A stretch of 64,000 bases of DNA from a virus. Taxonomy: Duplodnaviria > Caudoviricetes. A program made the translations under genes and the position numbers. This document shows positions 10,110-59,117 of the stretch, in pieces; the first letter of the stretch is position 1; the number at the start of each line of letters is the position of its first letter. The stretch is from IMG/VR virus record IMGVR_UViG_3300031555_001469. The stretch is one strand, 5' to 3'. Below the pieces are notes generated by a model. That model was given only the letters and a program-made list of their open reading frames with translations. It made no database searches and was not told the origin of the DNA.

Positions 10110-11258
10110 CTAATCCTCTTCTAATAATTTTAATAATTCGTCACACGTAATAAACTCAAATCCTTCATTTTTATTTACATACATTACAAACTTTTCATAA
10201 TCATTGTATGTATTGTCTAGAATAAAATCAAATTCTTGATATCTATCAGCAGTCTCTACATCAACAACTGTTTTTATTCCTTTTTCAAAGTTCTCGAATA
10301 TTTTCACATTAGAATTATTTCTAAAATAATTCTTTATAATATTAATTCGATCTTGTTCGTTAATAGTAAACTCTACCCTTAAGTTATCTATCCCAGATTC
10401 CTTCAATTGTGTAATATAAGCAATTGCTTCTCTAGGGTCAACTTTAAGCATATGATCTAAATTAACTGTATCGTATCTAAATGATTTGATTGGTTCAAAT
10501 TCCATTTTATGATACCCTGTATCTAAATCATGTAAAAGGATAATAAATCCTTTCTCTTCCTCCTCACCAAAACAATGTCTGATTGGAGTACCACAATAAT
10601 ACATATATCTTTCAAAACAGCCAGGGGTATGTACATGTCCTGCTATAACAGGTCCAGCACAATTCTTAAAACTGTTTATACTAAATACTGCATGAGAAGA
10701 TTCTAAATCTTCTTTTACTGCACCATGAATAGAACCTTTAAGAGTTCCATGCATAACTGCCATATCATATACACCACTTCTGTCAAGGAAATATTCATAG
10801 TACTCTTTTCCTTTACTATATTCTTCTGGTATACATAATACTCGCTTACCTTTAATAAATTCAAATTTCATCTGTTCTATGATTCTAACATCGTAATCTG
10901 GATTGTTTAGATATCTATAAAACAGTTTGAGCTGATGTGCATCATGGCTAGATGTACCATGCAAAATAATTAATGTAGCATCCTTAGATCTACATAACTC
11001 TGCAAGTAAATCTATAAACATATTTGCATACATAACTACATCACTAGATGCTAAGTTCTTGTGATCAAATATATCACCGTTGATATAAACGGCATGTAAA
11101 ATTCTTAAACTTTCTAGTTTAAGAATAAATTGTTCTCTTAAAATATTAAATTGTAATTTGGGGTCTAAAGCCCCGAAATGAATATCGGCAATATGAGCCT
11201 CCACTCTTATTCCTCTATTTGTATTTTTATTTATATAGATCTGTGAAATTGGTTTCAT
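10110..11258 (-). CDS. SbcD/Mre11-like metallophosphoesterase nuclease
   Basis: ADIHFG, NGDIFD, HGTSSHD, MHG, AGHVH, YCGTP...FGEEEEKG. Confidence 0.9.
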   Translation of the reverse strand: MKPISQIYINKNTNRGIRVEAHIADIHFGALDPKLQFNILREQFILKLESLRILHAVYINGDIFDHKNLASSDVVMYANMFIDLLAELCRSKDATLIILHGTSSHDAHQLKLFYRYLNNPDYDVRIIEQMKFEFIKGKRVLCIPEEYSKGKEYYEYFLDRSGVYDMAVMHGTLKGSIHGAVKEDLESSHAVFSINSFKNCAGPVIAGHVHTPGCFERYMYYCGTPIRHCFGEEEEKGFIILLHDLDTGYHKMEFEPIKSFRYDTVNLDHMLKVDPREAIAYITQLKESGIDNLRVEFTINEQDRINIIKNYFRNNSNVKIFENFEKGIKTVVDVETADRYQEFDFILDNTYNDYEKFVMYVNKNEGFEFITCDELLKLLEED

Positions 11259-11329
11259 ATTCTAATCACTCCTTTAATAAAGAGTTCACGAAAAAATAAA
11301 AAGTAATTAGACAAAAAATGAAGAAGGGG

Positions 11330-11539
11330 TTAAAACCCTTCTTCACCTATTCTATTGGAGAATAATACTCCAACAAATCCTACCAGTAGGTATATACCCA
11401 TTATTACTGATATGGTATTATTTGCAGAGGTGATACTCTTCAATAATTCAAATAATATAACCCCTAAAGTGAATACGGCTATCCATCCTATAACTGTATT
11501 CATAACCTTATCAAATAAGTTACTTAACTTTGCTATCAT
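11330..11539 (-). CDS. Small two-TM membrane protein (early)
   Basis: Two hydrophobic segments; GGAGGG SD. Confidence 0.7.
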   Translation of the reverse strand: MIAKLSNLFDKVMNTVIGWIAVFTLGVILFELLKSITSANNTISVIMGIYLLVGFVGVLFSNRIGEEGF

Positions 11540-11576
11540 ACGTTTCCCTCCTGTTGTGAAAAATTAAAGAGGAGCA

Positions 11577-11858
11577 TTACTGCTCCTCTTTCTTGTTTAC
11601 CTGCTTATAGATAACATAGGATACATCTAACCAGATGAACCATGTTAATCCGGTCTTTAACCATGTTGGCGCCTGGAAAGCCCACCATGTGCACAGGAAA
11701 TTATCCCATGCAAACATGAAAAGCCCATAAGCAAAAATTACTGCAACTGCAATCTTTAAGTATAAACCTAACTTAAATCCTGCTTCTTTTTCTGTTGCTA
11801 CTGTTGTTTCCTGATTTTCAGTCTCGTTAATAGTTACGTTTTTTGTTGTCATTTCCAT
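11577..11858 (-). CDS. Small membrane protein (early)
   Basis: Two hydrophobic Trp-rich segments; AAGGAGG SD; early promoter at 11929. Confidence 0.8.
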   Translation of the reverse strand: MEMTTKNVTINETENQETTVATEKEAGFKLGLYLKIAVAVIFAYGLFMFAWDNFLCTWWAFQAPTWLKTGLTWFIWLDVSYVIYKQVNKKEEQ

Positions 11859-11957
11859 AATAATATCCTCCTTAGATATTTGAATAGTTTTTGTTTTGAG
11901 TATAATCTATATACTCTATTTCACTATTATAATATCTAATTAAAAATACGGAGTTTA

Positions 11958-12485
11958 TCAATATCCACGGAACTTATTCTTCCAGTAATATTCTACTAAT
12001 TCAGATACTGCATCCATTGTAATTGTAATAATATTGAGGAAGGTATTCTCTTCATCTACATTATCAATTTCTGCGGCACCGTCTCTGAATTTGAATCTTA
12101 AAGCTGGAGATTTGCTATCTCTGAAATCATTACTCTTAATAATTTCAATCCAAGAATCGTCAATCCATAATTTATAAATTATACAAAGAGATCCTCTTCT
12201 TATGTGGAAGCAAGCATCTGGTCTAATACTAGACGACTTATCTTCTGCTGTGAATAATATACTATCCTGATTCTTTTCCGAATTAGGATAAGAATATACA
12301 TCAGCTAATACTTTGATGAAATGGAAAATTTCTAAAAGCATATTAAAGTTAGGAGAAGTTTTCTTCAATACTTTAATAAACTTTCTAAATTTCAACCACT
12401 CGAACAAATTAAACCCCTTATGCTTTCTAGCATATATTGGTTCTATGAAATAATTTACGTGATATTCTTCTTTTTTTGTCGGCAT
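11958..12485 (-). CDS. Hypothetical protein
   Basis: ORF with AGGAGGT SD. Confidence 0.8.
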   Translation of the reverse strand: MPTKKEEYHVNYFIEPIYARKHKGFNLFEWLKFRKFIKVLKKTSPNFNMLLEIFHFIKVLADVYSYPNSEKNQDSILFTAEDKSSSIRPDACFHIRRGSLCIIYKLWIDDSWIEIIKSNDFRDSKSPALRFKFRDGAAEIDNVDEENTFLNIITITMDAVSELVEYYWKNKFRGY

Positions 12486-40815: not shown

Positions 40816-41169
40816 TTAGGTCTCTTCAAAGAATAATTGTTTTTTAAGTCTCGCTACTGTGTACTGGGATAATTCTTGAACTTCTAATAAGTCTCGTATT
40901 GATAACTTATCTATGTAGTCAATTATGAAACCCTCTGATAACTTCTGTGAATATGAGATAATTTTCATATTCAGATATTCCATATTCTTTATAATAAAAG
41001 GTTCGGATAGCTTTTGATATAAGCTAAGCAAATCTTTATCAAAATATGAAATATGTTTTTGTAGGAAACCTTCCGAAAACTGTCGTTTTTCTATAAGATT
41101 ATCTAAATTAGTTTTAGAAATCTTAGAAATTATTTGCGACAGATAATCTTCAGAAAAATCTAAATACAT
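40816..41169 (-). CDS. QKLSE.FI 22-aa repeat protein (early)
   Basis: Repeats FSEDYL, QFSEGFL, QKLSEPFI, QKLSEGFI, QELSQ; early promoter at 41214. Confidence 0.8.
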   Translation of the reverse strand: MYLDFSEDYLSQIISKISKTNLDNLIEKRQFSEGFLQKHISYFDKDLLSLYQKLSEPFIIKNMEYLNMKIISYSQKLSEGFIIDYIDKLSIRDLLEVQELSQYTVARLKKQLFFEET

Positions 41170-41266
41170 AAAATCATTCCTTTCTCTCGAATATTTAGTT
41201 CCTCTACCTTATTATAATATATGCTTGGCAATAAGCCGTATACCAAAATAGGTATACGGCTCATTG

Positions 41267-42523
41267 TTATTTCATAGAGAATGCTTTCATTGGATCCATT
41301 TCGGCAAAGTCAATTACTGAGTTATGGAAGCTCTTCATGGATGCGTTCTTTAATCTAGATGGGACCTGAGGAGTTGCTGTACCAATATTCTTAATACCTA
41401 AACGGTAAAACATATTACCAGCACACATATTACAGAATCCGGTCTTTGATTCACACATTGAAGAGAATCTCATCTTTACTGTCTGACCAATTAACTCATT
41501 CTTATTATCAGATGTAATCTCTGTCCACTTATTTTTATACCAGACAAAGTTATACATATTTTCTTTAATATTCTTTGTAGTAAGAGTAATTGTAATAGTG
41601 CGTTTAGTACCACAATCACTACCCTTAGGGTCAAGAACCAAATGCTGGAACGCTCTCAAGAATAATTTTTCCTGAGCACCACCAACTTCTGTTTTCTTAG
41701 CACGAGCATATGGGCCTTCTACTAATGAGTTAGCCATTGTCACATACTCCTCTTTCTTGATACCGTCAACAAGATTGGATCCTACTACCTCATATCCCTT
41801 GTCAGGGTCAGGGTTTTTAACAGCACCTTTCATTACGTGCATATTCTTGAAGTTATTTCCCCAAGAACCTCTTGCTCCAGAATTATATAAATCTGCAGAA
41901 GGGTCTCCTTCTAATAATTCCTTAGCATATCTAAGTAATTCTTTCTCAATATCAGCAGCTGCTTTAGCTGAATTAGAATCACCAGATTTTAATTCTTTTT
42001 CATATTTCTTAAGTAATTCTCTTTTCTTTGGATCAAGCTCATTACTAATAAGAAGCATCTTCATTGTGTAGCCAGGGCAAAACATAGTAGAGTATGGCTG
42101 AAACTTTTGACATTTCATAGTAAATCTTTTTACTACTTCTATATCTATCTTATCTTCCATTAAAGCATATGCCATATCCTGATTGATGCTTTCATATTTG
42201 TCATTAGTAATTTCGTCTTCTATATATCCTTCTAATTCGAATAAATCTTTTTCGATAAATGTTTTATTGAACCACCAAGTACCTACAGTAGTTCTAAACG
42301 TATTAGTATTCTTATTTCCTTCTGGACCATAATATCCAGGCGGTACTACAAGAATATCATAAGGTTGACACTTAGGACCTTTGCCAAAATCCCCAAACAT
42401 TTCCATGAATGAAGATTCTTTTACTCCATATTCTTCGGTCATATTAAGCAGTGTGTTAATTACCTCTTTATCAGTTATCTCTTTAGGATATCTAATATTA
42501 GGATTTTTAGCCATTTTAGACAC
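41267..42523 (-). CDS. Phage RNAP beta' C-terminal fragment, probably the virion enzyme
   Basis: SGARGS, bridge-helix-like ARAKKTEVGG, DCGT, RFSSMC..GFCNMCAG, trigger-loop SMKSFH; late promoter at 42542. Confidence 0.88.
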   Translation of the reverse strand: MSKMAKNPNIRYPKEITDKEVINTLLNMTEEYGVKESSFMEMFGDFGKGPKCQPYDILVVPPGYYGPEGNKNTNTFRTTVGTWWFNKTFIEKDLFELEGYIEDEITNDKYESINQDMAYALMEDKIDIEVVKRFTMKCQKFQPYSTMFCPGYTMKMLLISNELDPKKRELLKKYEKELKSGDSNSAKAAADIEKELLRYAKELLEGDPSADLYNSGARGSWGNNFKNMHVMKGAVKNPDPDKGYEVVGSNLVDGIKKEEYVTMANSLVEGPYARAKKTEVGGAQEKLFLRAFQHLVLDPKGSDCGTKRTITITLTTKNIKENMYNFVWYKNKWTEITSDNKNELIGQTVKMRFSSMCESKTGFCNMCAGNMFYRLGIKNIGTATPQVPSRLKNASMKSFHNSVIDFAEMDPMKAFSMK

Positions 42524-46232: not shown

Positions 46233-46895
46233 ATGAGTGGGCAATTAGGACCTCAGCAAATTTTACCTGAAGTTTTTAATTATAACATAGGTGGAAATCC
46301 TACTATATTCTCTCCTAATGCTGGATATGAACTTCCATTCTTCCAGACTAGAGATTCTCTCAGAGATACAGAGAGTTATAAAGCATTTTTAGATAATGCA
46401 ATCCATAGATTTAGAAAGAGCAGAACTTATAAAAACTATAAGGGATTCCTTATGAATCTTGGATTAGACCATTGTCAAATGCATGGTAATATATCTTCTG
46501 AAATGGCTAGTATAGAAATGCACCACAATGTATTGACTATATTTGACATTGCATTGATTATTACTGAGCACGTTTTAAATACTACTGGATATATTACTAC
46601 ATTCGATTTAGTTCAGCTCTTAGCTCAAGAGCATATGCAACATCGAGTTCAGTTAGTTATGTTATCATTAACACCTCATCAGGCATTCCATGATGATCCT
46701 CAGTTTTTCATTCCATCTACAATGTGTGTAGGAGATTGGGTTGCATTTCTTGAGAAGTATAAATCTGGAATCACTCAGGATATAGCTTATAAATTATTAT
46801 ATTATATCCGTAGAGAGGAAGAACTTAAAGGAGAACCATTCGATAATAATTTACTTGATTTAAGAGAAAAAATATTAGGATGGGCTCAAGAATAA
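46233..46895 (+). CDS. HNH/His-Me-finger-like late protein, paralog of 55946-56728
   Basis: C...IEMHH...TIFD...LVMLS..PHQAFH. Confidence 0.65.
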   Translation: MSGQLGPQQILPEVFNYNIGGNPTIFSPNAGYELPFFQTRDSLRDTESYKAFLDNAIHRFRKSRTYKNYKGFLMNLGLDHCQMHGNISSEMASIEMHHNVLTIFDIALIITEHVLNTTGYITTFDLVQLLAQEHMQHRVQLVMLSLTPHQAFHDDPQFFIPSTMCVGDWVAFLEKYKSGITQDIAYKLLYYIRREEELKGEPFDNNLLDLREKILGWAQE

Positions 46896-48111: not shown

Positions 48112-48153
48112 AAAATAAAAGAGGAAGACTAATTAAAGTCTTCCTCTTAAAAT

Positions 48154-48558
48154 TTAGTTAGGATCGAAAATAAATGTTTTTAATCCGTACTTGTTAGCGT
48201 TGTCAATCATATTTTTAGTACCTTTAGATTTACCATCCCATAATGCGATAAGTACTCCAGTATATCCTTCTTCAGAAGCATATTTAGCTATCTGTTCATT
48301 TCGAATATATCCGGCTCGGCTACCATACTTATTCCAATCTGCAGGAAACTGCTTGACGGTTATATTATAATTACAGCCAAATTCTTCACCAATCTTATCA
48401 GCGCCTCTAGCTGTACCACTTACAATTTCAGTAAGATCTTTATCAAAGTTTGGTAACTTTCTGATACATTCGATAATAAAATCTTCGCCCAATGGATAAT
48501 TAACAAATTCTCTACTACCAGCAATAACAATTCTGTATTCAGTACGTCCTTCTACCAT
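48154..48558 (-). CDS. SLOG-family protein (YspA/DUF2493-like)
   Basis: IVIAGSR, IVSGTARGAD, ADWNKYG.RAGYIRN, WDGKSKGT. Confidence 0.9.
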   Translation of the reverse strand: MVEGRTEYRIVIAGSREFVNYPLGEDFIIECIRKLPNFDKDLTEIVSGTARGADKIGEEFGCNYNITVKQFPADWNKYGSRAGYIRNEQIAKYASEEGYTGVLIALWDGKSKGTKNMIDNANKYGLKTFIFDPN

Positions 48559-48622
48559 AATAGTTTCCTCCTTCTATAAAATATTCCCCGTGATGACTTT
48601 TATCATCACGGGGAAATACTGT

Positions 48623-49006
48623 TTAGACTCCTATGCTAAATACGTTAAGGCCGTAGGCTTTAGCAGCCCTTTCAGCTTCTTCTTTAGGATTGTCATACTT
48701 TTTATAAAACGTAAAAAGTAATCCTGAACAATCATCTTCAGTAGCATATTCAAGCATTTTATTGAATCTGATTTGATAAGCGTCAATAAGACCATATTGC
48801 TCTACATCTACATAAAAATCCTTTACTTTAATCATATTATTTGAAGCGAATCTATGAGCGATATCATCAGAATCTTCACCGAATCCGAGAATGTGAACAT
48901 CCTCCCAATCGATTGTTAATCCTGTAAGTAATTCGGACACATATTCTTCTACATCTTCATATGAAACGTAAGAATCTGTAGATATAATAACTCTGTATTT
49001 TGGCAT
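48623..49006 (-). CDS. Degenerate SLOG-like paralog
   Basis: Colinear with 48154-48558 (YRVII, F.VD.EQYG..A..IR, EYA.E..C.G.L, AKAYGL.VF) but the Gly-rich motifs are replaced. Confidence 0.6.
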   Translation of the reverse strand: MPKYRVIISTDSYVSYEDVEEYVSELLTGLTIDWEDVHILGFGEDSDDIAHRFASNNMIKVKDFYVDVEQYGLIDAYQIRFNKMLEYATEDDCSGLLFTFYKKYDNPKEEAERAAKAYGLNVFSIGV

Positions 49007-49019
49007 TATTAAAGCCCTC

Positions 49020-49820
49020 CTATCGTTTATTAAAATATATTTGAGAAAATATTTTGTATAATTCTCTCAAAATATTATAATTATAAGAAATGTTAAGACA
49101 GTATTTATCTTTCTCAGGTAAATGATCTGCCAGTAATTCCATATAATGTAACCCACCCTGAATCCTGTATTGGCTTGCAGGGTTAAATTCACGATAGTAT
49201 CCAATGTCTAAGTCTAAAGAGACATACTTTTGACTAAAAGCTTGAATTAGCCAAAGTGTGTTCTCTATACTATCCACTGTAGATACGTTTAGAAGCTCTA
49301 ATAAAAATTCATAGAAGAAATCTTGATGCAGAGCTAACTGCTGTTCTCCTATACCTTTTATATCTAAAACTTCTTTTCTCATTATAGGATCAAAGTAATA
49401 TAAATACTGAACCCTATTTATCCTAAGATAAGAAGTATATATATTCCTACAAGTAAATTCTACATTATCAAATTTAGTAACTGTAGGAATTTTGTTTATG
49501 ATATATATAGCATCATTCTTAATTGCCAATATATCATAATCTTGTATATCGTTTGCTTCAAAGAATAACTTCTTTACCTCGATAACCCCAGCATCTAAAG
49601 CTTTTCCTAATTCAGGATTAGCTGCTCTGAGTTTACCTATAGTAACCTGTCTAGTCATTCTATCGGCACTGTATAAAAAATTGTACTGCTCGATTGATAT
49701 AAGACCTTTCCATAAGAGAATATTAATATTAGCTTTAGCAATATCATACTCTCTTATGAATGATCCAATTAGATAATCAATGTCTGCAGTATAGTTTACG
49801 TTATTCCATAATTCTGACAT
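49020..49820 (-). CDS. Small divergent family-B-polymerase-like palm protein
   Basis: EYDIAKANINIL (motif A-like), AIKNDAIY (motif C-like), LDIKGI. Confidence 0.5.
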   Translation of the reverse strand: MSELWNNVNYTADIDYLIGSFIREYDIAKANINILLWKGLISIEQYNFLYSADRMTRQVTIGKLRAANPELGKALDAGVIEVKKLFFEANDIQDYDILAIKNDAIYIINKIPTVTKFDNVEFTCRNIYTSYLRINRVQYLYYFDPIMRKEVLDIKGIGEQQLALHQDFFYEFLLELLNVSTVDSIENTLWLIQAFSQKYVSLDLDIGYYREFNPASQYRIQGGLHYMELLADHLPEKDKYCLNISYNYNILRELYKIFSQIYFNKR

Positions 49821-50296
49821 ATCACCGCAAACCTTTCTTTATCTAAATCAAGATAATACAATCCTTGAAGTGTAAATGTAGAATCTTTTGTGTAGGCAAA
49901 ATCTTCTACGTCACCAAGAACCTGACCATTGAATCCATATCTCTGCTGAATAAATTTAAGAACGCTCTCTACGAATAATTCATTATATTCATCTGCTACA
50001 TCCGAGATACAGAATACATCATATCCTTGGTACAGATTATACATTATCTTCATAATATCAGTAAAAGCGGCTTCATTTGACATCAAATAATTTGCATAAG
50101 CTATATCAAACATTCTTTCATCATTTAACTGCATTGGAGATACAGTAATTTGACTTGATGAAGGAGTTAAATTTTTGAGATATTCTATATGCTTACCGCC
50201 CATAAACATACTTCCTATATTATATAAAAAGCATGGCTTACCATAATTAGCGACGACCGGCATTATTACATCCGGCCGCCCTATTAACAACCTCAT
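49796..50296 (-). CDS. DUF488/YeaO-like protein
   Basis: LTPS...FDIAYANYL...GYDVFCI pattern; paralog of 50293-50940. Confidence 0.45.
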   Translation of the reverse strand: MRLLIGRPDVIMPVVANYGKPCFLYNIGSMFMGGKHIEYLKNLTPSSSQITVSPMQLNDERMFDIAYANYLMSNEAAFTDIMKIMYNLYQGYDVFCISDVADEYNELFVESVLKFIQQRYGFNGQVLGDVEDFAYTKDSTFTLQGLYYLDLDKERFAVICQNYGIT

Positions 50297-50940
50297 GGCT
50301 TATCAGCAGAAAACTTAATTGGGGATACTCTTTCTAATAAGTGTCCATTAAGATGCTGCTGATCCCAAAGCATTGCTGTAAAGTTGATGAGTTGAACAGG
50401 ATCATAGAAAAGATCATAATCGATACCAACTTTATGAGCAATTGATTCAAATAACTTAAGGTCTCTTGGTACCTCTGCTAAGAACTCACTTAATGTGATC
50501 ACATCCGCCATATAACAGCACTGATTAATACATATCTGTGCATTAGGCAATAAAACGAATGGTCTGTTCTGAGTTCCTACTACTATACCAAAAGCTCCAG
50601 CCATATATTCTAAAAGAATTTCAATGAATAATTGAGCTTCGTCTTTAGGTACAAATAATGTAATATTAATACCCTGCAATAAAGCTCTACCAATTATTGC
50701 TATAAGTGTACAAGCCGCATCTGTAGACATGAGATAGTTTACATATTCCATTTTGAATCTATTCATATCTCCATCAACCTGTGCAAGCATAGCCTGGTAT
50801 GGAGGCATCAATACAGAAGCCTCCACAACCTGTATAGCATTACCAAAAGGATTTCCTTCGGTAATAGATACAATTCTGCTTTGATAAGCAAGATTTGGTA
50901 TCATATTATGGTCAGTTACTAAATAACAAGTTCCTACCAT
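50293..50940 (-). CDS. DUF488/YeaO-like protein
   Basis: LMPP...GDMNRFKMEYVNYL...GINITLF pattern. Confidence 0.45.
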   Translation of the reverse strand: MVGTCYLVTDHNMIPNLAYQSRIVSITEGNPFGNAIQVVEASVLMPPYQAMLAQVDGDMNRFKMEYVNYLMSTDAACTLIAIIGRALLQGINITLFVPKDEAQLFIEILLEYMAGAFGIVVGTQNRPFVLLPNAQICINQCCYMADVITLSEFLAEVPRDLKLFESIAHKVGIDYDLFYDPVQLINFTAMLWDQQHLNGHLLERVSPIKFSADKP

Positions 50941-50953
50941 AAATTCTCACCTC

Positions 50954-52282
50954 CTAGTAGTCAGAAAGGGACTGCTTTCTCTTTTGAATCTTTTCTCCAG
51001 AAGAACTCTTCTTTCCCTTCTTACCCTTACCAGATACAGCCTTTTCATAGTATTCATCATATGCATCAGTATACTCAACTGGTTCAGCTACTTCTGGTTC
51101 TGGAGTAGCTACCTTTTCAGGTTCTACAGTTGGTTCAACCATCATATCTTCCTTAGATGGTTCTTCAACCTTTTCTTCCTTTGCAGGAGCTGTAGGTCTA
51201 ATAGGCTTAGCTGCAGAATCAGCCTTAACGAATCTTCCGCCCTGTCCTCTAGCTGGCTTAGTCTTTTCTTCCTTAGCCTTTTCTTCCTTAGCGCTAGGTA
51301 CCTGTACCTTAGCTGCCTTTTCCGGTTCTCTGTAAACAGTAGTTGACTTGGTAACAATTTCTTTACCATTCTCTGTAACAGATACCAGAATCTTTCTGTT
51401 TCTGATTTCTTCCTTAGCCTTTGGCGCAGGCTTCTTGATTGTGTCGGAGACTCTATTTACATTAATCTCCTTGCCATTTTCCTTCACTACTACGTTCAAC
51501 ATGTTAGTTCCTCCTTTAATTAAAATTAAACCTTCATTCCGTTTGTCTTCAAGATCCTTTGCAGAGTATTTCTTTCCACAACAACGGCATACTAAATAGT
51601 TAAAACCATCGTCATAATCTATTTCACCACCGCATACAGGTTCTTTTGTATTCGGGAATATAGGTCTATTACACATGAGTTTCCTACCATCCAATTTATA
51701 CATATATGGATAGTCTAATAAACAGATACCGAATCCTACTCTAATTCCATAGTTATTAAAGAACTTAGATCCAATATCTTCTAATACATATTTGCCTACA
51801 ATACACTTTGTAATCAAATCAAAAGTATCTTCGTATACATAGGCAAATTCTTCAATTGAGTTTATAGGCTCAATTCTTTCAAATACTCCGACGGTTCCAC
51901 ATGGAGAAACATCGAAGCACTTTGTTACAAATGGTTTAAGCTCGAATTGGTTTCTGAATTCTCTTGGATTATCATTCATCCCAACACGATCTACTGCAAC
52001 TTTACAAACAATATGTGGTAACTCATAATGAGTATAAACGACTCTATTAGTTCCAGCATGGAATCTCATAAAACCATTTCTTACCATAATATCATTTATC
52101 ATTTCTTTTTTCTTAACTATATTTCCATTCAGCTTAATGCTAGTAGCTATCTTTCTTAACTCTTCTACATCAGCTGGTGGTATAAGTTGATACACTGCAG
52201 GACCGAATAACGAGTCCCACTGAAATTCTAAAGCGGATTTCTTTTGCCCATACAAAACTGTCATTGCATCTGCTCTAGCCAT
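50954..52282 (-). CDS. Protein-kinase-like enzyme with Zn ribbon and charged low-complexity tail
   Basis: AGTNRVVY (Gly loop), VCKVA (catalytic Lys), NPREF (helix C Glu), EDIG...NNYG (catalytic loop), LLDY (DFG equivalent); C...C/RCCGK. Confidence 0.78.
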   Translation of the reverse strand: MARADAMTVLYGQKKSALEFQWDSLFGPAVYQLIPPADVEELRKIATSIKLNGNIVKKKEMINDIMVRNGFMRFHAGTNRVVYTHYELPHIVCKVAVDRVGMNDNPREFRNQFELKPFVTKCFDVSPCGTVGVFERIEPINSIEEFAYVYEDTFDLITKCIVGKYVLEDIGSKFFNNYGIRVGFGICLLDYPYMYKLDGRKLMCNRPIFPNTKEPVCGGEIDYDDGFNYLVCRCCGKKYSAKDLEDKRNEGLILIKGGTNMLNVVVKENGKEINVNRVSDTIKKPAPKAKEEIRNRKILVSVTENGKEIVTKSTTVYREPEKAAKVQVPSAKEEKAKEEKTKPARGQGGRFVKADSAAKPIRPTAPAKEEKVEEPSKEDMMVEPTVEPEKVATPEPEVAEPVEYTDAYDEYYEKAVSGKGKKGKKSSSGEKIQKRKQSLSDY

Positions 52283-52295
52283 TACTACAATCCTC

Positions 52296-53246
52296 CTATC
52301 CGCCTAATATAGCACTGAAGAATTTAGCTTTTCGTTCACTATATGACCTTGCCAAATTCTCAGGTAATGTAACTTCTAAATCATCAGTAGAAATATCATT
52401 AGGGTCAAAATTCATTATGCTACTATAATAACTTCCACTTGTATTATGCAGATTTAATAAATGCTGGAAATTTCCTTGATTGTATACCCTATTAACTTCT
52501 CTTTCTTGCTGATATCCTCTTGCAGCTTTCGCCTCACAATATAATTCTCCAGCTCTTTCTAAGAATTCAAATAATGACATATCATCAGGATAATTTTCTT
52601 TCATCTGAGCCATACGAGTATTATTATTCTGATTCATTCTTGAAATCTGGGTTGATACATTATCTTGCTGCTGACTTAATTGTTCAAGTCGTTGCATACG
52701 CTGCCAATGCTGTTCGCACTGTATTTCTTTTTGGTCTACGTAGTATGGGTCATATTGACTTAAATATTCATCATCGACCTCTACGCCCAAATAACTATTT
52801 ACGTTTCTTGAAATCATTTTCATGATAGAAGCCTGCTGTTTCATAGCTTCTTCTTCTTGCATTCTCTGCAATTCCATCTGTCGCTGAATTAAATATGGAT
52901 TAGCGCCATAATAATTATTTGTATAGTATCCACCTACCATAGGCTGCGACTGATAACCATATCCATAACTCTGTTGTGGGTTATATTGAGCAAACGCACC
53001 ACCTGCAATAGGCTGTTGCAAATACTGCTCAAAACCAGAACCTCCAACAGGCTGTTGCTGTTGATTCATATAAGGATTATATCCTGTATAAGTAGTTTGC
53101 TGCATATATGGATTATATCCATAATTAGCAGGTTGATTATATCCATACCCACCGACATTAGCGATTGGAGTAGGAGGTACAGGATATCCCATACCTCCGT
53201 TGTATCCAATACTATTTGCGATAGGCGACTGATTTGCGAACATCAT
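52296..53246 (-). CDS. Protein with N-terminal prion-like Q/Y/G/N/P domain
   Basis: About 118 N-terminal residues almost free of charge, with GYNPY/YGY repeats; early promoter at 53284. Confidence 0.85.
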   Translation of the reverse strand: MMFANQSPIANSIGYNGGMGYPVPPTPIANVGGYGYNQPANYGYNPYMQQTTYTGYNPYMNQQQQPVGGSGFEQYLQQPIAGGAFAQYNPQQSYGYGYQSQPMVGGYYTNNYYGANPYLIQRQMELQRMQEEEAMKQQASIMKMISRNVNSYLGVEVDDEYLSQYDPYYVDQKEIQCEQHWQRMQRLEQLSQQQDNVSTQISRMNQNNNTRMAQMKENYPDDMSLFEFLERAGELYCEAKAARGYQQEREVNRVYNQGNFQHLLNLHNTSGSYYSSIMNFDPNDISTDDLEVTLPENLARSYSERKAKFFSAILGG

Positions 53247-53307
53247 AATCGCCTAGCCTCCTTAATCTTATTTATTCATTAGTATAATATATAACTAATG
53301 AATTTGT

Positions 53308-54138
53308 TTAGAATTCATAATTATCATCATTATCTCTATGATAAGTACGATCTAAGTTTTTCCTAACTTCAGGATTGAATTTAAATTCGACGCCAAGGTT
53401 ATCATAATTTCTCTTAGTATCTACATCAAATTCGATAACTTTATTAGTACGTTCAACTTCTTCAGGCTCAAGGAAAATCTCGCCTAATAAGTTTTCTGTC
53501 TTGTAAGCTTCATCATACTGACCAATCTCTTCGACGAGATCTTCATTATGATAACTCATTGCTCTTAATGCTGTCATCTCATTATGGTATCCTACCAAAT
53601 GATGAATGATAATATTCGAGCAGTTAGCTACAATTCTGTTTAAGTACTCTACAATCTCTGTGGCTTCTTCTGGAGAACTATGTCTACCAAAGATAGCATA
53701 TTTGTAAAGAGATGCATACATTTTGCAGCAAAGCATATGTGATAATGCTCCTATATCAGTTAAACTGCAAATTCTTGCGTTTACAGGAATATATGAAAAT
53801 TCATGTAAATCAACCTTATCATAATCGATAAGACCGGAATTGATACATGTGTTTAATGCAGACATAAATACATCTGTTAACAGGAACTGTAATTTGTCAT
53901 ATGCTGCCCCGCACATGTTGTTATAAAGTTTTGTCCATCCACCCTTTTCTTCTAATGATGTGGAAACATCACCCATATAAATTCCCATTGAATTAAATGG
54001 TGTTTCGTGTCTAACGACACCACCCTGACCGATAAGAATATTAGGACTTAATGCTCTAACCGGTACAATCTTTTCTACTGTTTTTGGAAGGGTTTCTTCC
54101 TTCTGTGCTGTAAGATTTCTTCTCATTAATTTACTCAT
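53308..54138 (-). CDS. Hypothetical protein
   Basis: ORF with GGAGG SD; late-type promoter at 54162. Confidence 0.8.
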   Translation of the reverse strand: MSKLMRRNLTAQKEETLPKTVEKIVPVRALSPNILIGQGGVVRHETPFNSMGIYMGDVSTSLEEKGGWTKLYNNMCGAAYDKLQFLLTDVFMSALNTCINSGLIDYDKVDLHEFSYIPVNARICSLTDIGALSHMLCCKMYASLYKYAIFGRHSSPEEATEIVEYLNRIVANCSNIIIHHLVGYHNEMTALRAMSYHNEDLVEEIGQYDEAYKTENLLGEIFLEPEEVERTNKVIEFDVDTKRNYDNLGVEFKFNPEVRKNLDRTYHRDNDDNYEF

Positions 54139-55340: not shown

Positions 55341-55443
55341 ATATTTGTACCCCTTTCGTGTTATTCATATTAATAATATATAAATAAAACGAATTTAGGA
55401 TTAAGGTAAACCCTAGGTGAAAATTATCACCTAGGGCTATATT

Positions 55444-55945: not shown

Positions 55946-56728
55946 TTACTTCTCAACTATTCTAATCGGCTTAATTACGATAGAATTAGGTTGATAATCA
56001 TCCATTTGTCTGTTAGCATTTCTAATCTCTTCTAATCTACCTTTAAGAAGATTAGCTACATACTCTGCTGATGGTAATTCATATGCACCTGTTAAATCGG
56101 TGTATATGTAATTCTTTTCGAGTAATTCCATACCCTTAGATTCTTCATAAGTCTCTGTAGCGGACTCGATTCTTTCTAAGATATCAAGCTGTTCTGGAGA
56201 GAAGAAATCTTTGTATGCTTCTACAAAGTTCTTATAAGCACCATATACTTTAGTAGTAGGTACGAATAAGTACATATTGTGTACAAGCTCATGTACTGTT
56301 TCTGCCAAAGGGATTAATCCAACCCAACAGTTGTAGTGGATCCACATTACTTCTTTGGCTACAGATTCTACATCTAATGGTTCTCTATAAGCTTTACGCT
56401 TATTGAATACTACTATAACCATATCGAATAAAGTTATAGGGTCATGATGTATATGAATCTTAATCTTGGTAGAATCTATATTAGTAATATTCTTATAGAA
56501 ACTACACTTATTCATATTAAAGTTTTCTCTTAAGAAAGCTACCATTTTTCTATACTCAAAAGAAGTTCTAATGTTTCTCTCAATATCTGCAAAGTATCTC
56601 TTAAGATCTTTTTCATCATTGAGATCATAGTCTACTATGTCGTATTCTGGTAACTCTGATATTTTTACGAGATTTATATCATTTCTTTCCACATAATCTA
56701 TAGTGATTATATTTCCTGGATCTCTCAT
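55946..56728 (-). CDS. HNH/His-Me-finger-like late protein, paralog of 46233-46895
   Basis: C...IHIHH..ITLFD...LIPL..TVHELVH; late promoter at 56742. Confidence 0.65.
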   Translation of the reverse strand: MRDPGNIITIDYVERNDINLVKISELPEYDIVDYDLNDEKDLKRYFADIERNIRTSFEYRKMVAFLRENFNMNKCSFYKNITNIDSTKIKIHIHHDPITLFDMVIVVFNKRKAYREPLDVESVAKEVMWIHYNCWVGLIPLAETVHELVHNMYLFVPTTKVYGAYKNFVEAYKDFFSPEQLDILERIESATETYEESKGMELLEKNYIYTDLTGAYELPSAEYVANLLKGRLEEIRNANRQMDDYQPNSIVIKPIRIVEK

Positions 56729-57812: not shown

Positions 57813-59117
57813 TTAAATATCTTCAGAAGCAATATCTTCCTGTTTATCTACAGTATTCAAAATAACCTCTTCAGATCCACCATCTTCAGAAACTTCGATT
57901 TCTTCTTCTACGGTATGAATCTTCTTAGTGAGGTGAGAATCTACGTCTGTGTAATCAGGAGATATTCTTGTTCCTAAATACATAGGATCAAGATACTTAT
58001 ATACATTAATAGTATTTAAACTTGCTCTAAAGCTATCCATTACAGCATTATCAATAACATCTGCATACTGCTTAATTTCAGGCTGAGCAGACTTATGAGT
58101 TCTAAGCTGTAAGAACTTCAATAAGTGTCTATACGTGAAAGTCATATAAACCTTACCAGATGCATAGTTCTGAGGGAGATATCCTCTAGCATCTTCTTTA
58201 TCAAGACCCTGTTCTCTAAGATCTTCATATATATCCATTAAAGCATCTCCAAGATCTTTTAAAGTAAAATATTCTTTGAATCGCTCAATAAAATAAGTTT
58301 TATCGGCTTCATACTTAGGTTTGAATTTATCTGGAGAATTGAACCCGTATTCTCTTAAGTCTACATATCTACCAGATTCCTGAGTAATACCATTTCTGTG
58401 TCTTGTGAGCTGCTGTGTAATAATACGGCTCATCTTATCAAATATGATTGTAACAGTCATCATATCCAGAAGATCATCAAATGTAAATACATCATACATC
58501 TTAGATGCTGCTTCATCGATATTATCTACATTGACAATTGTAACTCTATCATCTTCGACTTCTACCTTGTTACAATAGCCAGTAACTTCTGTTTCTTCAT
58601 CTGGATAATAACCGAATGAATGATCATTCATGATTCCATCCTGAATGAAATCTGCAAAATAACACTTATCTAAGTTCATATAGATCTGCGTTCTGATTGT
58701 GTCGAGTACTACATTAGTCATATCAAGCATATTTCTAAATGCTTCCTTATAACCTCTGATACTTCCTCCTACTAAAAGATAAATGTTTTCACCCTTTACT
58801 CTAGCTTTCTTATTAAGATACTGAGCAGCTGACATAAATGCTAAAACACTTTCCATCTCATGAGCAGGAAATACCATCTGAATTACCATATTACTGTGTT
58901 CAATAACAGATTCATGACCGGTTTTAATTCGCTTAGCGATATACTCACATTTCTCTGAGTATGTAGTATATCCCTTTGTTCCCCAGCACACTTTACATGC
59001 ATCCGCCACAATATTAATATTATCATTAGTTAAAATTGTTTCAGCTGCATAAACAGCCTTTCCTTTCACAATCTTTGATTTGTTACTCTTTTTTGTTAAA
59101 GCGTTAAATAAATTCAT
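57813..59117 (-). CDS. thyX: FAD-dependent thymidylate synthase, extended form
   Basis: GHESVIEH, SRIITQQLTRHRNGITQESGRY, EDARGYLP, FLQLR..KSAQPEIK. Confidence 0.92.
   Translation of the reverse strand: MNLFNALTKKSNKSKIVKGKAVYAAETILTNDNINIVADACKVCWGTKGYTTYSEKCEYIAKRIKTGHESVIEHSNMVIQMVFPAHEMESVLAFMSAAQYLNKKARVKGENIYLLVGGSIRGYKEAFRNMLDMTNVVLDTIRTQIYMNLDKCYFADFIQDGIMNDHSFGYYPDEETEVTGYCNKVEVEDDRVTIVNVDNIDEAASKMYDVFTFDDLLDMMTVTIIFDKMSRIITQQLTRHRNGITQESGRYVDLREYGFNSPDKFKPKYEADKTYFIERFKEYFTLKDLGDALMDIYEDLREQGLDKEDARGYLPQNYASGKVYMTFTYRHLLKFLQLRTHKSAQPEIKQYADVIDNAVMDSFRASLNTINVYKYLDPMYLGTRISPDYTDVDSHLTKKIHTVEEEIEVSEDGGSEEVILNTVDKQEDIASEDI

Follow-up and report, generated by a model that had tools for sequence, protein, structure and literature searches.

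A conserved early operon with a predicted minimal family-B polymerase core in AR9-related jumbo phages

The window analysed here is a stretch of 64,000 nucleotides (nt), corresponding to bases 106598-170597 of a 229.8-kb IMG/VR viral contig (IMGVR_UViG_3300031555_001469) that is rated 93% complete. It has a G+C content of ~32%, and its genes lie mostly on the minus strand. Our subject is a run of seven minus-strand genes between positions 48154 and 53246, termed g1 to g7, of which g5 encodes a predicted family-B polymerase (PolB) core of just 266 amino acids (aa). The first five genes keep company in many related phages, while g6 and g7 lie on a recent insertion.

The locus and its transcription signals

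The genes and signals of the locus are listed with their window coordinates and strand.

52296..53246 (-): g1, 316 aa; low-complexity N-terminus and conserved C-terminal domain
50954..52282 (-): g2, 442 aa; minimal protein-kinase-like domain at residues ~30-200, four-cysteine Zn ribbon, disordered tail at 260-442
50293..50940 (-): g3, 215 aa; the longer of two paralogues, with possible remote similarity to the C-terminal half of DUF488
49796..50296 (-): g4, 166 aa; shorter paralogue of g3
49020..49820 (-): g5, 266 aa; predicted stand-alone minimal family-B polymerase core, phrog_21037
48623..49006 (-): g6, 127 aa; divergent paralogue of g7, SLOG-like
48154..48558 (-): g7, 134 aa; intact SLOG of YspA/YAcAr type (DUF2493-like, phrog_289)
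53284..53293 (-): predicted early promoter core TATATATTAT, followed by N6-G (predicted start near 53277) and a ribosome-binding site (RBS)
48584..48615 (-): hairpin between g6 and g7, a 14-bp GC-rich stem followed by TATTTTAT; terminator or attenuator
48119..48148 (-): intrinsic terminator-like hairpin, a 12-bp stem and a T-run, closing the transcription unit
48131..49022 (-): lineage-specific SLOG insertion of ~890 bp, holding g6, the hairpin and g7

A first-pass annotation, made from the letters and open reading frames (ORFs) alone, had described seven tightly packed or overlapping genes behind one early promoter at 53284, with a hairpin ahead of the last gene. All of these features are present. 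The genes are separated by gaps of 13 nt at g1/g2, g2/g3 and g5/g6, and they overlap by 4 nt at g3/g4 and by 25 nt at g4/g5. The stop/start overlaps at the latter two junctions suggest translational coupling. The hairpin is real, with its 14-bp stem, and no RNA family of Rfam was matched in the window.

On the 5' side of g1 we find TTATATATTAT-ACTAAT-G, then AAGGAGG and then the ATG. The consensus of the AR9 early promoters, mapped by differential RNA sequencing, is AAATATATATTAT-N6-G (PMC5312081), and the core TATATATTAT recurs in the early promoters annotated in AR9 itself. There are five exact minus-strand copies of this core in the window; every one is followed by N6-G and lies shortly ahead of a gene, and four of them are within ~55 nt of a recognised RBS. 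In total six exact 10-mers are observed in the window against ~3.1 expected. With N6-G and a nearby gene at all five minus-strand sites, we regard the assignment of an AR9-type early promoter, of the kind used by the virion RNA polymerase, as well founded for this operon by analogy with AR9.

The source can be placed by its gene content as an uncultured jumbo phage of the AR9/PBS1 branch of the PhiKZ-type phages. This placement rests on a split, divergent PolB, a homologue of AR9 gp225, an RNase H that resembles AR9 gp241, and the AR9-type early promoters.

Conservation of g1 to g5 and insertion of g6 and g7

We searched 81 related loci with iterated hidden Markov models (HMMs), 80 viral loci having been reached through the g5 alignment and one through g2. 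The order RNase H-g1-g2-g3-g4-g5 is found on one strand in 45 of the 81, and g2-g3-g4-g5 in 20 more. These five genes appear to be an early operon that is the hallmark of a large clade of uncultured jumbo phages related to AR9. Neither g6 nor g7 was found in any of the 81 loci. Conservation of the gene neighbourhood had been proposed as the check on the whole set, and the outcome is divided: g1 to g5 are syntenic across the clade, but g6 and g7 are missing from all the related loci and from a close relative.

The comparison with that relative (L175) shows where the boundary lies. Its gene order is ThyX ... RNase H-x-g1-g2-g3-g4-g5, running straight into convergent downstream genes, and the six proteins from RNase H to g5 are 72-89% identical between the two phages. 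Alignment with blastn gives 85% identity over the g4-g5 flank and 71% over the downstream flank (48130-47642), with a break at window positions 49022/48131. The stretch between, which holds g6 and g7, is represented by only ~20 bp in the relative. The SLOG cassette is a separate accessory unit that has been recently inserted.

The x in this order is a variable slot. In the window it holds a 276-aa ORF between RNase H and g1 (53308-54138, minus strand) that matches no family and is conserved only in the closest relative, with 42% identity. Two mutually paralogous phrog_12252 proteins, without an assigned function, flank the region on opposite strands, at 55946-56728 (-) and 46233-46895 (+).

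The reading of g7 as an intact SLOG was correct. It matches PF10686 with 36.1 bits against a cut-off of 28.2 (E = 5.9e-9) and phrog_289 with E = 6.5e-27, and by tblastn it finds 1126 phage records from many unrelated groups, with 40-48% identity. It therefore resembles the YspA/YAcAr SLOG proteins (PF10686; DUF2493-like, phrog_289), of which mycobacteriophage D29 gp61 is an example. What differs here is the arrangement as a tandem duplicate on a lineage-specific insertion, with the glycine-rich loop degraded in one copy. BLASTP aligns g6 with g7 over 124 residues (5e-12), and the loop SGTARGAD of g7, which we take to be the nucleotide-binding motif of the SLOG family, is aligned with LGFGEDSD in g6, so that GTARGAD has become GFGEDSD. 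No Pfam family was matched by g6 and no cultured phage by tblastn. From its sequence g6 is best described as a diverged duplicate of g7, in agreement with its earlier description as a degenerate SLOG.

The seven genes had been interpreted as one phosphorylation-regulated system centred on SLOG and DUF488 proteins, which would process nucleotides or derivatives of nicotinamide adenine dinucleotide (NAD), or act in counter-defence, possibly on a condensate scaffold. The single promoter and tight packing, the genuine SLOG in g7, the weak DUF488-like signals in g3 and the prion-like composition of g1 all speak for such a system. The synteny, however, splits the locus, with g6 and g7 absent from 81 of 81 loci and from the close relative and sitting on the ~890-bp indel, and a terminator-like hairpin separates g6 from g7. 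PADLOC defence models and NCBIfam match none of the seven proteins. We consider a single seven-gene system highly improbable; the SLOG genes are a recent addition, and this removes the counter-defence framing. It is somewhat more likely than not, in our judgement, that the locus is instead two things joined together, a clade-conserved early operon of five genes, g1 to g5, and a recently inserted SLOG cassette, g6 and g7.

The polymerase-like protein encoded by g5

Pfam contains no match to g5 at E<=1, and in PHROGs it falls in phrog_21037, to which no function is assigned. PDB sequence searches with profiles of g2, g3, g4 and g5 gave matches at chance level only. The structure of g5 was predicted by AlphaFold2 from an alignment of 47 sequences with a mean predicted local distance difference test (pLDDT) of 94, and Foldseek comparison of this model with the PDB returned family-B polymerases and herpesvirus UL8. 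The initial description had been of a polymerase-palm-like protein. This is borne out and goes further, as the model comprises the whole palm-fingers-thumb core of a right-handed PolB. The chain begins at the palm, with residue 6 of the model corresponding to residue 393-394 of RB69, and the N-terminal and 3'-5' exonuclease domains are lacking. Homologues range from 194 to 286 aa in length. The closest structural twin in BFVD is G4KKL4 (253 aa, template modelling score 0.80), followed by uncharacterised Myoviridae proteins and then by UL8 and viral PolBs.

Three carboxylates, E24, D26 and D103, are invariant in the 47 clade sequences and in 10 deep relatives. The g5 gene is also found in AR9, PBS1, BpSp and phiR1-37, and in jumbo phages of Staphylococcus, Listeria and Fusobacterium, and the same three residues are invariant in AR9 g239, BpSp gp295, phiR1-37 g276 and the Fusobacterium phage protein at only 25-31% identity. 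In the secondary structure of the model, D26 is the last residue of the strand 16-27, with a helix after it, and D103 lies in the turn of the hairpin 97-101/104-108. By this architecture, rather than by residue-level superposition, D26 and D103 would occupy the places of PolB motifs A and C and would be the two metal-binding aspartates. The helices of the fingers carry conserved basic residues, R/K57 and K/R83-84, together with G62 and N90. Because the carboxylates and the basic finger residues are preserved at 25-31% identity, the active site is likely to be a live one. The fold and the conserved residues are seen directly in the model and alignments, while catalytic activity and a role in replication or repair are what we infer.

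The comparison with well-known family-B DNA polymerases (RB69 gp43, KOD/Tgo, Pol alpha, E. coli Pol II) shows the extent of the reduction, since g5 is about one third of their size and has neither an N-terminal nor an exonuclease domain. Several features of its sequence tell against an ordinary polymerase. The carboxylates lie in EYDIxKAN and KNDA, which differ from the canonical DxxSLYPS of motif A and DTD of motif C, and motif B, KxxxNSxYG, is not present on the fingers in either the clade or the deep-relative alignment. In addition, a six-frame search of the genome with PF00136 failed to detect g5, finding only the two split-PolB genes.

These same properties would be expected if g5 were a PolB derivative that has lost catalysis and serves as a scaffold for the helicase/primase or for the split polymerase; herpesvirus UL8 and the C-terminal half of Pol epsilon would be comparable proteins. 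UL8 is an inactive PolB fold in the helicase-primase complex; it has ~750 aa and keeps degenerate N-terminal and exonuclease-like parts. Herpes simplex virus UL8 chains, representing such a PolB-derived accessory protein, are among the best structural matches of g5, and both the missing motif sequences and the blindness of PF00136 would fit. However, g5 is a bare catalytic core with conserved carboxylates, and E24, D26 and D103 are invariant all the way from the clade to AR9, phiR1-37 and the Fusobacterium phages, as would be expected of an active site that has been preserved. A dead scaffold thus seems to us quite improbable, and g5 is most likely an accessory, active and non-proofreading nucleotidyltransferase.

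Such an enzyme would work beside a separate replicative polymerase. Far from the locus the genome has a split divergent PolB, consisting of a 643-aa ORF with the exonuclease and motif-A part and a 705-aa ORF that matches PF20286 and the PolB fingers. These two ORFs lie outside the window at G000:C1:46476-48593 (+) and ~66233-68164 (-), 20 kb apart on opposite strands. PolA was not found in the genome. The split PhiKZ-type polymerase and its RNase H-clamp partner Rhc were described only in 2026, and chimalliviruses were left without an identified primase or clamp (PMC13648687). Our phage shares with that system its broad jumbo-phage group, a two-gene PolB (PF20286) and, at g5, the proximity of an RNase H. 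The difference is that g5 is a third, complete mini-polymerase and not either half of the split enzyme, and that the RNase H has 234 aa. In the mechanism that we propose g5 may act in gap filling, in primer extension or initiation, or in repair, together with the replication and RNase H genes.

We also considered g5 as the missing primase. Models of DnaG_N, Toprim_2 and Prim-Pol find no match in the genome, but an ORF outside the window, at G000:C1:227027-227986 (-), is homologous (E = 5e-24) to AR9 gp225, which carries the annotation 'DNA primase'. This role was set aside as only a minority possibility. AR9 gp225 itself has no Pfam match, and the basis of its annotation as a primase could not be checked.

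The RNase H gene (PF00075; 54181-54885, minus strand) is conserved on the upstream side of the operon, where 56 of 81 loci have it, and its product has ~80 extra C-terminal residues. It is transcribed with a 145-aa gene as a unit that has its own exact AR9-type early promoter at 55373-55382 (-). Further upstream, 57813-59117 (-) encodes a 434-aa protein with a ThyX domain (PF02511, Thy1) at residues 217-360, behind an unexplained N-terminal extension of 216 residues. The ThyX domain implies synthesis of thymidine monophosphate (dTMP) by the present phage, whereas the DNA of its relatives AR9 and PBS1 contains deoxyuridine.

The g1 to g4 proteins and the operon as a unit

The first 115 residues of g1 contain 16% G, 16% Y, 13% Q, 10% N and 10% P, and a single charged residue (0.9%). 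The Q/N/G/Y-rich, charge-poor tract behind the prion-like description is therefore present. Homologues of g1 lie directly 5' of the kinase gene in 48 of 81 loci. A similar tract, taken as an 80-residue window with at least 60% QNYGSPM, is present in 44 of these 48 homologues. Their lengths among the listed loci vary from 239 to 1004 aa, and sequence conservation is confined to the C-terminal ~200 residues. No Pfam or PHROG family was matched by g1.

The kinase-like fold proposed for g2 is supported by structural comparison. The model (pLDDT 84) is bilobal and protein-kinase-like; its best Foldseek match is RIO2 (E = 5.5e-5), followed by dozens of kinases, and ranked by Z the best is PRPK/Bud32 (Z = 8.6 over 158 aligned residues), with RIO1, OspG and HopBF1 close behind. 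For residues 1-265 there are 861 homologues in metagenomes, with 50-58% identity. In 41 homologues K94, E108, D169, N177 and D190 are invariant, and on inspection these match the kinase Lys, Glu, Asp, Asn and Asp in order and spacing. The four cysteines of the Zn ribbon (C204, C217, C232 and C235) are likewise invariant, and 14 of the 41 homologues have Trm112p-type matches in the ribbon. The tail (260-442) is disordered, rich in K, E, P and V, and 39% charged. Pfam and NCBIfam kinase models match neither g2 nor the 41 homologues, which are detected by Zn-ribbon models only. According to the model, then, g2 is a minimal kinase fold without an activation loop, followed by a Zn ribbon, and protein-kinase activity is likely but not certain. 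Compared with Bud32/PRPK, RIO, OspG and HopBF1 it adds an N-terminal helical extension, the four-cysteine ribbon and a K/E/P-rich tail of 180 residues, and unlike those kinases it is negative for the Pfam kinase models and found only in phages. In several relatives g2 is much longer, reaching 813 aa.

The mutual paralogy of g3 and g4 that had been suggested is confirmed by BLASTP (1e-7) and by hhalign (96.7%, E = 4e-10 over 80 columns). Of the 81 loci, 71 have the two together and 79 have at least one of them, and they diverge fast, with 20-30% identity. They are probably clade-specific partners or regulators. A prediction of the g3+g4+g5 complex gave 0.45, 0.00 and 0.00 in its runs for g5 as the partner, values that speak neither for nor against an association.

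For their assignment to DUF488/YeaO the signals are weak and below threshold. Using a YeaO-subfamily alignment as the DUF488 comparison set, hhalign aligns g3 residues 45-118 co-linearly with YeaO 44-117 (73 columns, score 24.6, P = 0.0026), whereas reversed or unrelated controls score 8.8-13.3 against YeaO (P = 0.19-0.89). Weak sub-threshold matches to the DUF488 clan (PF04343, and the DUF488-N3 subclades PF22751 and PF22752) are scattered among 38 g3 homologues: two to PF22751 (best E = 0.014), one to PF04343 (0.22) and one to PF22752 (0.23). These four match rows represent up to four of the 38 homologues, and DUF488 is the only Pfam clan that recurs among the 38. On the other side no match reaches a Pfam cut-off, PF04343 matches neither g3 nor g4, and the N-terminal half of DUF488 is unmatched in g3. 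The similarity of g4 is weaker still (P = 0.037 against YeaO), and there is no Pfam DUF488 match among 41 g4 homologues. A HMMER profile search with g4 through 1.84 billion representative proteins remained within a closed family of 591 clusters and never reached DUF488 proteins. Together with the failure of PF04343, this counts further against a seven-gene system built on DUF488. The odds that g3 and g4 share a fold with DUF488 we put as roughly even.

The one six-frame match to PF04343 in the genome, a weak one (E = 0.002), was rejected as a DUF488 protein. It lies at L088 1396-1887 (-), equivalent to G000:C1 ~40875-41366, in a 163-aa ORF with the P-loop GYQGIGKST (GxxGxGKS) that looks like a small nucleotide kinase.

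We propose that in this clade g5 would be co-expressed with g2, a minimal Bud32/RIO-like kinase or ATPase, with the Tyr/Gly/Gln-rich g1, and with g3 and g4, and that g1 to g4 may be its clade-specific early partners or regulators. What we observe directly is the synteny, together with the insertion and the agreement with the AR9 promoter; any physical or regulatory link among g1 to g5 is one that we infer. A number of results make such a link less secure. While g4 abuts g5 in 56 of 78 loci, in the other 22 there are 0.7-3.5 kb of varied genes between them. No g2 or g4 was detected in the whole records of AR9, BpSp and phiR1-37, where g5 is monocistronic. In view of these inserts and of the stand-alone g5, coupling of g1-g4 to g5 is not obligatory, and may amount only to shared early timing. 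Bud32 and RIO proteins are ATPases as much as kinases, and because these relatives of g2 act as ATPases the term phosphorylation-regulated is not secure either.

The whole-record searches of cultured phages, made for g2 and g4 only, gave a single 14-bit kinase-like match in JD-Fnp1, and HMMs of g1 to g4 found nothing in the g5 flanks of AR9, BpSp, phiR1-37 and JD-Fnp1. Nor was there any match in cultured phages to the locus by megablast or to g2 and g3 by tblastn. RNase H adjoins g5 in AR9 and BpSp too. AR9 g239 is downstream of an annotated early promoter, and the phiR1-37 g5 gene has its own promoter and terminator. Among the individual loci, g4 and g5 are set apart in L010, L014, L019, L021, L033 and L081 by 2-3.5 kb with ORFs of 150-240 aa, and L004 has a 620-aa ORF between g2 and g3 (10498-12360).

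The main rival to an accessory-polymerase operon is that g1 to g5 are a co-inherited block of independent early genes that share a transcript without a joint mechanism. The block would then consist of a host-takeover kinase comparable to T7 gp0.7, two small proteins that interact with the host, and a low-complexity protein and an accessory polymerase that are both unrelated to the rest. The occurrence of g5 alone in the AR9-like cultured phages and the inserts in 22 of 78 loci would be in accord with this, as would the contrast between 20-30% identity for g3 and g4 and 50-58% for g2, which is expected of host-facing proteins. Most AR9 early genes are, moreover, hypothetical takeover genes (PMC5312081). 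Against it, the order and orientation of g2-g3-g4-g5 are kept in about 70 of 81 loci at a g5 identity of 32-49%, and the overlaps at g3/g4 and g4/g5 suggest coupled translation. We judge independent takeover genes to be a possible but rather unlikely explanation.

A more far-reaching proposal can be made for the accessory-polymerase operon. In this g5 would be the smallest natural family-B polymerase, active without exonuclease or N-terminal domain, perhaps primer-independent or ribonucleotide-tolerant, and serving as initiator or gap-filler. Within the clade the tyrosine-rich g1 would nucleate an early focus of replication to which g5 is recruited, the g2 kinase or ATPase would act as the switch, and g3 and g4 would form a heterodimeric adaptor derived from DUF488. 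The possibility of primer independence or ribonucleotide tolerance arises because the steric-gate tyrosine of motif A is not recognisable. We think this complete scheme improbable.

In our interpretation the locus has three layers of different age, with the old mini-polymerase g5 common to the AR9-like group, the clade-wide g1 to g4 in front of it, and the very recent SLOG cassette behind. We found no paper describing the g5 family, and the mini-PolB and the conserved early operon both appear undescribed.

How PhiKZ/AR9-type jumbo phages replicate is only gradually becoming clear. In g5 they have a textbook enzyme in a new and minimal version that is conserved and predicted to be probably active in 266 residues, and whose family extends from AR9, PBS1 and phiR1-37 to hundreds of metagenomic phages, annotated everywhere as hypothetical. 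The kinase-fold protein g2 with the low-complexity g1 constitutes an undescribed early module found across the clade. Homologues of g5 in cultured phages make direct testing possible, and the protein might find use as a compact polymerase scaffold.

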